Shown here piece after piece: positions 52,308-55,063 of a stretch of DNA of 64,000 nt. The notes below the pieces were generated by a model. It worked only from the letters and a program-made list of their open reading frames with translations, did not search any database and had not been told where the DNA came from. Positions within the stretch are counted from its first letter, which is position 1, and each line of letters starts with the position of its first letter. This DNA is from Escherichia coli (GTDB taxonomy: Bacteria > Pseudomonadota > Gammaproteobacteria > Enterobacterales > Enterobacteriaceae): NCBI RefSeq assembly GCF_001677475.2, contig NZ_CP015229.1; one strand, given 5' to 3'. The translations under genes and the position numbers were made by a program.

Positions 52308-52853
<546 letters not shown>

Positions 52854-52862
52854 GAGAATTGC

Positions 52863-53654
52863 ATGAGCAGTAACTTCAGACATCAACTATTGAGTCTGTC
52901 GTTACTGGTTGGTATAGCGGCCCCCTGGGCCGCTTTTGCTCAGGCACCAATCAGTAGTGTCGGCTCAGGCTCGGTCGAAGACCGCGTCACTCAACTTGAG
53001 CGTATTTCAAATGCTCACAGCCAGCTTTTAACCCAACTCCAGCAACAACTCTCTGATAATCAATCCGATATTGATTCCCTGCGCGGTCAGATTCAGGAAA
53101 ATCAGTATCAACTGAATCAGGTCGTGGAGCGGCAAAAGCAGATCCTGTTGCAGATCGACAGCCTCAGCAGCGGTGGTGCAGCGGCGCAATCAACCAGTGG
53201 TGATCAAAGCGGTGCGGCGGCATCAACGACGCCGACAGCTGATGCTGGTACTGCGAATGCTGGCGCGCCGGTGAAAAGCGGCGATGCAAACACGGATTAC
53301 AATGCAGCAATTGCGCTGGTGCAGGATAAATCCCGCCAGGATGACGCAATGGTGGCATTTCAGAATTTCATCAAAAATTACCCTGATTCAACTTACCTGC
53401 CAAACGCCAATTATTGGCTGGGTCAGTTAAACTACAACAAGGGTAAAAAAGATGATGCGGCGTACTATTTTGCTTCGGTAGTAAAAAACTATCCGAAGTC
53501 ACCAAAGGCTGCAGATGCGATGTTTAAAGTCGGTGTCATCATGCAGGACAAAGGTGACACCGCAAAAGCGAAAGCCGTATACCAGCAGGTTATCAGTAAA
53601 TACCCTGGTACTGATGGCGCTAAACAGGCACAAAAACGTCTGAACGCGATGTAA
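52863..53654 (+). CDS. cpoB: cell division coordinator CpoB (YbgF), TPR protein
   Basis: 263-aa ORF, signal peptide, coiled coil and TPR region. Confidence 0.93.
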   Translation: MSSNFRHQLLSLSLLVGIAAPWAAFAQAPISSVGSGSVEDRVTQLERISNAHSQLLTQLQQQLSDNQSDIDSLRGQIQENQYQLNQVVERQKQILLQIDSLSSGGAAAQSTSGDQSGAAASTTPTADAGTANAGAPVKSGDANTDYNAAIALVQDKSRQDDAMVAFQNFIKNYPDSTYLPNANYWLGQLNYNKGKKDDAAYYFASVVKNYPKSPKAADAMFKVGVIMQDKGDTAKAKAVYQQVISKYPGTDGAKQAQKRLNAM

Positions 53655-53818: not shown

Positions 53819-53894
53819 GGGTCGTTAGCTCAGTTGGTAGAGCAGTTGACTTTTAATCAATTGGTCGCAGGTTCGAATCCTGCACGACCCACCA
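53819..53894 (+). tRNA. lysT: tRNA-Lys (anticodon UUU)
   Basis: 76-nt sequence GGGTCGTTAGCTCAGTTGGTAGAGCAGTTGACTTTTAATCAATTGG...CACGACCCACCA. Confidence 0.97.
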
Positions 53895-54029
53895 ATCGCT
53901 AAGGTGGAAGCGGTAGTAAAACGTGAAGGATAACGTTGCGTCAGCAACGGCCCGAAGGGCGAGACGAAGTCGAGTCATCCTGCACGACCCACCACTAACA
54001 TAGTTAGTTGTAGTATCCAGCGTAGTATC

Positions 54030-54105
54030 GGGTGATTAGCTCAGCTGGGAGAGCACCTCCCTTACAAGGAGGGGGTCGGCGGTTCGATCCCGTCATCACC
54101 CACCA
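54030..54105 (+). tRNA. valT: tRNA-Val (anticodon UAC)
   Basis: 76-nt sequence GGGTGATTAGCTCAGCTGGGAGAGCACCTCCCTTACAAGGAGG...CACCCACCA. Confidence 0.97.
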
Positions 54106-54107
54106 CC

Positions 54108-54183
54108 GGGTCGTTAGCTCAGTTGGTAGAGCAGTTGACTTTTAATCAATTGGTCGCAGGTTCGAATCCTGCACGACCCACCA
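54108..54183 (+). tRNA. lysW: tRNA-Lys (anticodon UUU)
   Basis: identical Lys tRNA sequence, 2 nt after valT. Confidence 0.97.
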
Positions 54184-54234
54184 CTAATTACGGTGGGTTC
54201 GGTGGAAGTAGTTTGTAGTATCCAGCGCAGTATC

Positions 54235-54310
54235 GGGTGATTAGCTCAGCTGGGAGAGCACCTCCCTTACAAGGAGGGGGTCGGCGGTTCGATCCCGTCA
54301 TCACCCACCA
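54235..54310 (+). tRNA. valZ: tRNA-Val (anticodon UAC)
   Basis: identical Val tRNA sequence. Confidence 0.97.
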
Positions 54311-54313
54311 CTC

Positions 54314-54389
54314 GGGTCGTTAGCTCAGTTGGTAGAGCAGTTGACTTTTAATCAATTGGTCGCAGGTTCGAATCCTGCACGACCCACCA
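54314..54389 (+). tRNA. lysY: tRNA-Lys (anticodon UUU)
   Basis: identical Lys tRNA sequence. Confidence 0.97.
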
Positions 54390-54535
54390 ATTTTAACATC
54401 AAACTCAGATGTTAAGCGTGAAGGATAACGTTGCGCCAGCAACGGCCCGTAGGGCGAGCGAAGCGAGTCATCCTGCACGACACACCAATTTTAAAGATTG
54501 GTTCCGAGTAGAAATCTTTCAGGTAACACCCGTAT

Positions 54536-54611
54536 GGGTCGTTAGCTCAGTTGGTAGAGCAGTTGACTTTTAATCAATTGGTCGCAGGTTCGAATCCTGC
54601 ACGACCCACCA
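54536..54611 (+). tRNA. lysZ: tRNA-Lys (anticodon UUU)
   Basis: identical Lys tRNA sequence. Confidence 0.97.
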
Positions 54612-54644
54612 TCCTGAATGATTAAAGCAGCATAATCCCGCAAG

Positions 54645-54720
54645 GGGTCGTTAGCTCAGTTGGTAGAGCAGTTGACTTTTAATCAATTGGTCGCAGGTTC
54701 GAATCCTGCACGACCCACCA
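54645..54720 (+). tRNA. lysQ: tRNA-Lys (anticodon UUU)
   Basis: identical Lys tRNA sequence. Confidence 0.97.
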
Positions 54721-54724
54721 ATGT

Positions 54725-54751
54725 AAAAAAGCGCCCTAAAGGCGCTTTTTT
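54725..54751 (+). terminator. intrinsic terminator after lysQ
   Basis: aaaaaagcgccctaaaggcgctttttt hairpin with flanking A/T runs. Confidence 0.8.
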
Positions 54752-54880
54752 GCTATCTGAGATATTCAAAGATTCGAACCTGCAGCAGGTTCGAGTTGAG
54801 CGCAGCGAAACAACGGAGCCGCTCGCGGCGACGGCCCGAAGGGCGAGCGAAGCGAGTCATCCTGCACGACCCACCAATGC

Positions 54881-54907
54881 AAAAAAGCGCCCTAAAGGCG
54901 CTTTTTT
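54881..54907 (+). terminator. second copy of the same terminator (tandem duplication)
   Basis: Identical hairpin aaaaaagcgccctaaaggcgctttttt preceded by a tRNA 3'-end-like fragment. Confidence 0.7.
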
Positions 54908-55063
54908 GCTATTCAGGCATCTCTCAATTTCAATTCTTGACCCTGATGACATACTCCGCGCTTGCTGCGTAAACAACTCTACGTCGGAGGAATAAGACGC
55001 AAAGTGTGGCATTCGGCATCTCATACGTAATTCGAGTGACTTTTCCCCACCATTCGACTATCT

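Follow-up and report, generated by a model that had tools for sequence, protein, structure and literature searches.

What are the tRNA-like sequences in the spacers of the lysT operon, and why does this operon end in two copies of one terminator? In the window (the whole 64-kb stretch of Escherichia coli DNA analysed here), the operon lies between the core genes cpoB and nadA. It comprises seven tRNA genes on the + strand (53819-54720), called by ARAGORN and matched by the Rfam tRNA model, in the order Lys-Val-Lys-Val-Lys-Lys-Lys, as annotated for b0743-b0749 of K-12. Beyond the five true tRNA-Lys ends, a repeat search recovered three extra copies of CGAGTCATCCTGCACGAC(C/A)CACCA, at 53971-53994, 54464-54487 and 54853-54876. 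A sequence-only reading had pointed to such copies in the spacers, and to an exact second terminator after the third, and took them for remnants of unequal recombination or of past integration at tRNA 3' ends that could serve as secondary attachment sites. The observations were borne out, with tRNA-like ends at 53994, 54487 and 54876 and the terminator repeated exactly; the interpretations are considered below.

The repeats are longer than their tRNA-like ends. Homology between the elements reaches 50-70 nt further upstream in the repeat search, with 92% identity between 53916-53963 and 54411-54458 and 94% between 54439-54489 and 54828-54878. The core pattern CCCGNAGGGYGA-N(6-24)-GARTMATCC matched three times in the 64-kb window and not at all in 100 shuffles of it. 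Against the Rfam model for RtT (RF00391, gathering score 45) the elements scored 60.6, 51.6 and 51.5 bits (E-values 1e-8 to 1e-11), copies 1 and 2 being scored together with the upstream tRNA. Chance similarity or low-complexity sequence is not a tenable explanation for three matches where none was expected, with such E-values and with conservation across genera. The three elements are members of the known TLR/RtT family.

Copy 1 (53921-53994, + strand) occupies the lysT-valT spacer and combines three hairpins with a closing stem; it repeats 18 nt of the tRNA-Lys 3' end at 53977-53994, and its predicted fold is -28.5 kcal/mol (z -3.8). Copy 2 (54416-54487, + strand; repeat families D3, D5 and D6) lies in the lysY-lysZ spacer, its 18-nt end at 54470-54487. 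For both, the RtT model places its 5' half on the tRNA-Lys upstream and needs a 44-nt insertion to do so; scored alone, both fall slightly below the cut-off of 45 (42.3 bits for the spacer part of copy 1). We class them as a short, 5'-truncated form because the spacer part matches model positions 51-130 only. Copy 3 (54745-54876, + strand), between the two terminators, is full length and covers model positions 1-130. The sequence-only reading had found this copy but drew it too short. It comprises the 5' half of a pseudo T-arm, GCAGGTTCGA (54785-54794), a 64-nt core (54795-54858) and the 18-nt tRNA-Lys end (54859-54876). All three elements are on the + strand, that is, downstream of a stable-RNA gene and on the same strand, with cores starting 27, 27 and 25 nt past lysT, lysY and lysQ, respectively. 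Their last 18 nt, ATCCTGCACGACCCACCA, equal the tRNA-Lys 3' end at 18/18 positions in copies 1 and 3 and at 17/18 in copy 2, which carries a C->A change at 54482 that is private in the alignment with K-12 and strain KK19-02.

These ends are no chance product of decay, but a defining and conserved feature of the family: in a TLR, the last 18-19 bp match the tRNA or rRNA upstream exactly (PMC8144298). Neither ARAGORN nor the Rfam tRNA model found a pseudo-tRNA or cloverleaf in the window besides the seven genes, and copy 3 retains T-arm halves only, with no recognisable cloverleaf. The position homologous to copy 3 is annotated as 'RtT sRNA' by RefSeq in the near-identical strains EcPF15 and KK19-02, and in 11 of 11 chromosomal records among the matches listed. 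Short open reading frames that run over the cores and would encode Arg-rich peptides (compare the annotated tpr in rttR) were read as a by-product of the GC-rich hairpins.

The family has a long history (Egan & Landy 1978; Rudd 1999). According to the summary in PMC8144298, its first sighting, in tyrT, dates from 1978. The 22 TLRs of K-12 are spread over ten loci, with between one and five at each, and no function is known for them in the literature (PMC8144298). The current text of the CoCoNuT paper and that of the TRIC-seq preprint are without RtT content.

The second part of the question concerns the terminators. The hairpin AAAAAAGCGCCCTAAAGGCGCTTTTTT occurs in identical form at 54725-54751 and 54881-54907, both on the + strand, and both copies have the features of Rho-independent terminators: each stands at an operon's end and is a GC-rich hairpin with a U tract behind it. 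Terminator 1 folds at -19.1 kcal/mol (z -6.3) and terminator 2, its exact copy (repeats D4 and I1), at -21.1 kcal/mol (z -6.8). A simple terminator scan listed neither of them on the + strand, though both fold strongly; stem extension may perhaps have swallowed the A/U tracts. The hairpin is included in a 54-nt direct repeat (54703-54756 and 54859-54912, 98% identity) with a spacing of 156 bp. The region 54703-54912 (+ strand, repeat D4) can thus be described as 1.35 copies of a 156-bp tandem unit made up of the 18-nt tRNA end, the terminator and the RtT element. Tandem Repeats Finder did not report this unit; the sole tandem repeat that it reported is a 205-bp duplication, valT-lysW/valZ-lysY.

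The lysT-operon terminator has been described, and its sequence is the same as that of the valU-operon terminator (PMC4176162). In K-12 the terminator is duplicated at lysQ and at lysV, the terminator-RtT module being present after lysV in the valU operon as well, and duplication is also found in other genera. Citrobacter, Leclercia and Enterobacter carry the module too, and the lysV locus of E. cloacae has two units. Within E. coli, the terminator-to-RtT junction was found in 3026 genomes (56% of 5,426), at one to five places in each. The number of 156-bp units after lysQ is 0, 1 or 2; strain KK19-02 has one extra unit and hence three terminators.

Comparison with K-12 identified which elements vary. 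The K-12 lysT operon has five RtT matches, after lysT, lysW, lysY, lysZ and lysQ, and its terminator-RtT-terminator arrangement after lysQ is that of the window. The duplicated terminator is therefore common to both, while the elements after lysW and lysZ are absent from the window, where three of the five K-12 sites are filled. In the alignment, one difference is a clean 98-bp gap and the other a clean 99-bp gap, and any position inside the 18-nt repeat will serve for their ends. The empty site after lysW (54166-54183, + strand; alignment A1 columns 523-620) holds a 98-bp TLR in K-12 and that after lysZ (54594-54611, + strand; columns 1049-1147) a 99-bp TLR; in the window each junction consists of the 18-nt repeat.

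Junction counts were then made over 5,426 complete E. coli genomes; queries were ~62 nt long, and the E-value limit was set so that a match had to be full length to pass. The lysW-valZ spacer is without the element in 3025 genomes and with it in 2298, and the lysZ-lysQ spacer is without it in 3199 and with it in 1787. For the other two spacers the empty junction alone was counted, and it was found in 1793 genomes for lysT-valT and in 1264 for lysY-lysZ. All four spacer sites are thus polymorphic, with an element-free junction in 23-59% of the 5,426 genomes. A core query found 1-11 copies per E. coli genome (median 5). In ~990 genomes (~18%; e.g. CFT073) the sole copy is an 84%-identical one after the serV-arg operon. 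Only 6 of the 24,868 core matches in this search of E. coli genomes were on plasmids.

The structure is not identical in all E. coli references, since spacer sites are filled or empty in thousands of genomes and the unit number varies. It is neither strain-specific nor fixed: this is an old family with turnover in copy number. Because other genera have such elements too, the polymorphism may run in the direction of loss. In natural populations, precise indels and altered unit numbers fall at the repeats that end the elements, and it is here that the proposal of unequal recombination at tRNA 3' ends finds its support: the 98- and 99-bp indels end exactly on the 18-nt repeat, and zero to two units follow lysQ. 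Both the 18-nt repeat (tRNA end against element end) and the 54-nt one (tRNA end with terminator) are substrates of such recombination, in the form of precise deletions and of unit duplications; element number varies between strains as a result. Differences in lysT-operon length between strains can be read as ordinary repeat-mediated indels.

The same 18-nt repeat could also be viewed in another light. Integrases that target tRNA genes leave behind a direct repeat with its start in the T loop and its finish at CCA, and the repeat in the lysT operon likewise begins in the T loop. The tRNA-end copies might then be attR-like scars of phage or island integration at tRNA-Lys, still usable as attachment sites. 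What they share with attL/attR at tRNA genes is this direct repeat of the tRNA 3' end; what lies between the repeats is different. There are merely 80-140 nt, occupied by a conserved, covarying, structured element that is also found beside many tRNAs and 5S rRNA, with no integrase, island or other foreign gene, and the operon is flanked by cpoB and nadA. ARAGORN called no pseudo-tRNA. Among 50,697 phage records, no match covered 80% of the query, and the few matches in the phage file were chromosomal Salmonella contigs or unannotated fragments of 1-7 kb; the search for an att source thus returned nothing relevant, and no phage record carries the element. We regard integration as a very improbable origin. 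The elements are already known and annotated; recombination is supported as the source of their variation and integration is not, and the spacers should be labelled TLR/RtT rather than tRNA fragments or att sites.

If the elements are not scars, what has kept them recognizable? Copies cognate to Lys, Arg, Pro and Tyr tRNAs share one predicted fold, consisting of a closing stem, hairpins b, c and d, and a single-stranded tail. Hairpin b is CGUUGC-NNNN-GCAACG, hairpin c is GCCC-GNA-GGGC, and hairpin d varies and has GA on its flanks. In the closing stem, the 3' strand is the ATCC... repeat derived from the tRNA upstream, whose T-stem and acceptor 3' strand it duplicates, and the tail ends in ...ACCCACCA. 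A scan for the core in one genome per species found at least 120 stretches in many Enterobacterales and other Gammaproteobacteria, a host list that is biased because the scan pattern demanded an ATCC ending and finds only copies that have one. In 50 diverse copies, 91.4% of cells in the three hairpins were paired, compared to 74.4% in shuffles and 25-42% in slid controls, and double-sided changes were found in 103 cells vs. 35 in shuffles; hairpin c, being fixed by the search pattern, is uninformative in the pairing test. The three-hairpin core fold is kept by compensatory changes across Gammaproteobacteria, and covariation in RtT has also been found in the R-scape/CaCoFold work (10.1101/2020.02.04.933952).

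Outside the hairpins, sequence follows the cognate tRNA. The 5' strand of the closing stem is CGTG(A/T)AGGAT for Lys, GGGAGGAT for Arg, GGGGAAGGAT for Tyr and ACGGCAGGAT for Gln. Among the matches listed, most copies with an upstream tRNA end in exactly the last 18 nt of that tRNA and the rest are off by one or a few bases; the end of the element follows the upstream tRNA even where the acceptor sequence varies between species. The core adjoins Lys, Tyr, Arg, Pro, Ser, Gln and Val tRNAs and 5S rRNA, among the matches listed plus the rrnB spacer.

A fold maintained by compensatory changes over so wide a phylogenetic range would fit functional small RNAs, regulators or sponges freed from the tRNA precursor in the manner of RrA/RrB/RrF or the leuZ 3'ETS. 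RtT RNAs have been detected by RNA-seq in Klebsiella and by Northern blots in Actinobacillus, in vitro binding of Hfq and CsrA is documented for the TLRs located between rrn T1 and T2 (PMC8144298), and copy 3, like them, lies between two terminators. Against this, for each lysT-operon site a large proportion of natural E. coli do without the element, and ~18% of genomes have just one distant copy elsewhere. The CsrA-binding score was below 0.01 for 19 tRNA-operon TLRs (PMC8144298). In K-12, Northern blots with spacer probes described precursors in RNase P mutants and reported no stable spacer RNA (PMC4176162). The sole published RtT phenotype, better recovery from amino-acid starvation with the help of rtT RNA, was later retracted (PMC8144298), and for this reason the strong structural conservation is functionally unexplained. 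On balance we consider a role of the lysT-operon elements as functional small RNAs unlikely.

Rather than independent small RNAs, copies 1 and 2 would be by-products, co-transcribed with the tRNAs and cut out by the tRNA-processing enzymes. The K-12 lysT operon is a single transcript of ~1100 nt that ends at the first terminator; RNase P removes the terminator and then splits the tRNAs apart, with assistance from RNase E (PMC4176162). Copy 3 would be transcribed only when polymerase reads through terminator 1, as is the case for TLRs between rrn T1 and T2, which arise from read-through transcripts with processing adjacent to the repeat (PMC8144298). The tRNA-like 3' end probably fixes the 3' processing point, as has been suggested for the 5S-like end of RrB.

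How the elements arose is suggested by the layout of copy 3, in which the 64-nt core stands between GCAGGTTCGA and ATCCTGCACGACCCACCA, that is, between two halves of a tRNA-Lys T-arm, the second of which continues into the acceptor end. In Photorhabdus caribbeanensis, ~175-bp units form arrays, one of at least 6 units and another of at least 13, in which each unit is a whole tRNA-Lys split at the same point as copy 3, and in Citrobacter a near-whole tRNA-Tyr is likewise split by the core. Taken together, these sequences suggest that TLRs are the remains of extra gene copies that carried the core 18 nt from the 3' end. Each lysT-operon element would thus be what is left of an extra tRNA-Lys gene copy bearing the ~64-nt core, and the second terminator would then be explained as the degenerate copy's own. 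In the rrnB T1-T2 spacer, the same hairpins are followed by the 3' end of 5S rRNA; with the core thus also placed behind 5S rRNA genes, a T loop is no requirement for the origin. A specific association of the core with GGTTCGAATCC T loops, which we had entertained, was weakened both by this occurrence after 5S rRNA and by the circularity of a scan that requires ATCC.

The split genes also raise the question of whether the core itself has moved, as a past or present mobile or copy-and-paste module that lands ~18 nt from the 3' ends of stable RNAs and of which the E. coli elements are decayed products. Its presence within whole tRNA-Lys copies of Photorhabdus and a near-whole tRNA-Tyr of Citrobacter would agree with such movement, as would its place beside seven kinds of tRNA (Lys, Tyr, Arg, Pro, Ser, Gln, Val) and 5S rRNA, and its occurrence inside ~260-nt imperfect palindromes away from tRNAs in several Gammaproteobacteria. 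No transposase, target duplication or recent insertion event was seen with these cases, tandem amplification alone can build arrays, and recombination in the shared GGTTCGAATCC box could spread the core between tRNA types; the host list on which its breadth is judged is the one biased toward ATCC-ending copies. Mobility of the core is a possibility that we hold only tentatively. The same reserve applies to the broader picture of an ancient, structure-constrained module with a mobile past, carried in MITE-like palindromes, whose lysT-operon members have decayed and are still turning over, which we find conceivable but rather doubtful.

The dispersed ~260-nt palindromic repeats with the same core were seen in distant Gammaproteobacteria. 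An Rfam search with these dispersed elements matched no family. We also considered ERIC repeats as their identity, and an ERIC probe had no match in the window.

We consider it highly probable that the account as a whole is correct: TLR/RtT elements, probably processed by tRNA enzymes, with copy number changed through their repeats, and derived, it would seem, from split tRNA-Lys copies. What stands out is a contrast, in that a family known for 45 years and without a function has a fold conserved across Gammaproteobacteria, yet each lysT-operon copy is widely dispensable in E. coli. The only candidates for novelty are possibly the split whole-tRNA arrays and the dispersed palindromes with the core. 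That contrast, together with a possible link of the family to these arrays and palindromes, is the sole part of this material that might reward more work.

Several known systems can be set beside the lysT-operon elements. The leuZ 3' external transcribed spacer is likewise an RNA by-product of tRNA-operon processing (PMC8144298), but it acts as an Hfq-linked, base-pairing small-RNA sponge, whereas no partner or Hfq link is known for the lysT-operon elements. RrA, RrB and RrF (rrnA, rrnB and rrnD T1-T2; PMC8144298) resemble copy 3 in lying between two terminators and in read-through expression, which for copy 3 is presumed. They share the core AACGTTGCG..GCAACGGCCCG.AGGG, and their ends copy the 3' end of the upstream RNA. 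They differ in following 5S rRNA, in having a T1 and a T2 unlike each other, and in GGA motifs that bind CsrA, while tRNA-operon TLRs are predicted not to bind it (PMC8144298); the RtT covariance model gave no score on RrA, RrB or RrF. With the TLRs of K-12 the window elements are the same in kind, three of the five K-12 lysT-operon sites being filled. The rttR/RtT element of the tyrT operon (RF00391; Bosl & Kersten 1991), to the extent that it is described in PMC8144298, PMC3318445 and PMC4986893, shares the core hairpins and the closing stem, a 3' end equal to the last 18 nt of the upstream tRNA, location in a tRNA operon and tandem units variable in number. The cognate tRNA is Tyr there and Lys here; in the lysT operon, copies 1 and 2 are without model positions 1-50 and sit in internal spacers, and the 156-bp unit contains a terminator.

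In Photorhabdus caribbeanensis (NZ_RCWB01000021.1), arrays of a ~175-bp unit, one with at least 6 copies and one with at least 13, lie downstream of two intact tRNA-Lys genes (compared stretches L027 8950-9668, L028 1-700 and L029 5230-7900, each in its own coordinates). Each unit comprises a complete tRNA-Lys sequence in which the 64-nt RtT core sits in the T loop, between TTCGA and ATCC. The arrays differ in their state of preservation, one being nearly mutation-free and the other decaying. In Citrobacter werkmanii and Citrobacter sp. FP75 (L035, L067), a near full-length tRNA-Tyr pseudogene is found directly upstream of an intact tRNA-Tyr gene; here too the RtT core is inserted after TTCGA, and the 3′ end of the pseudogene is degenerate.

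The three-hairpin core was also found where tRNA genes do not adjoin it, at the center of dispersed imperfect palindromes of ~260 nt with inverted ends (e.g., GGGCACCTCGAAAAACC...GGTTTTTCGAGGTGCCC). These occur in the metagenome-assembled genome (MAG) SZAS LIN-96 (L007-L023), a Rhodanobacteraceae MAG (L080-L089), Thioalkalivibrio (L102-L104), Budvicia (L099), Photorhabdus cinerea (L055), and Pluralibacter (L110). The core inside them shows compensatory changes, and a comparison of the palindromes with Rfam matched no family. The same core as in RtT (AACGTTGCGAAGCAACGGCCCGGAGGGTGGCGGGCAGGACGCCCGCC) is present in K-12 rrnB, between terminators T1 and T2 (L128 262-326), in a spacer that is in wide use. 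A copy of the 5S rRNA 3′ end follows it, and the RtT covariance model gave no score on this core.

The number of tRNA genes under the match varies between E. coli strains, with, for example, two Lys and one Val or four Lys and two Val. Because these counts (E. coli genome BLAST matches, rows H13-H30) take in only features under the BLAST match, they do no more than suggest that recombination between identical tRNA-Lys genes may be behind the strain differences. Within the window's lysT operon, positions 54008-54389 hold 1.9 copies, at 98% identity, of a 205-bp unit (spacer, tRNA-Val, tRNA-Lys), which is the valT-lysW / valZ-lysY duplication. The tRNA-like end of copy 2, the second RtT element (GACACACCA), carries a C-to-A change at 54482 that is present neither in K-12 nor in the two closest strains examined.

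A CpoB/ybgF intercistronic RNA thermometer (Rfam RF02782) was matched upstream of cpoB (52754-52892, 142 bits), and across lysZ and lysQ (54556-54696) lies a sub-threshold match to YrlA, a Y RNA-like family, which scored 44 bits where the cut-off is 69. Arginine-rich short ORFs run across RtT cores at 53923-54003 and 54796-54972. Similar to the “protamine-like” tpr ORF that is annotated within rttR, the RtT locus of the K-12 tyrT operon, these ORFs probably arise incidentally from the GC-rich hairpins.
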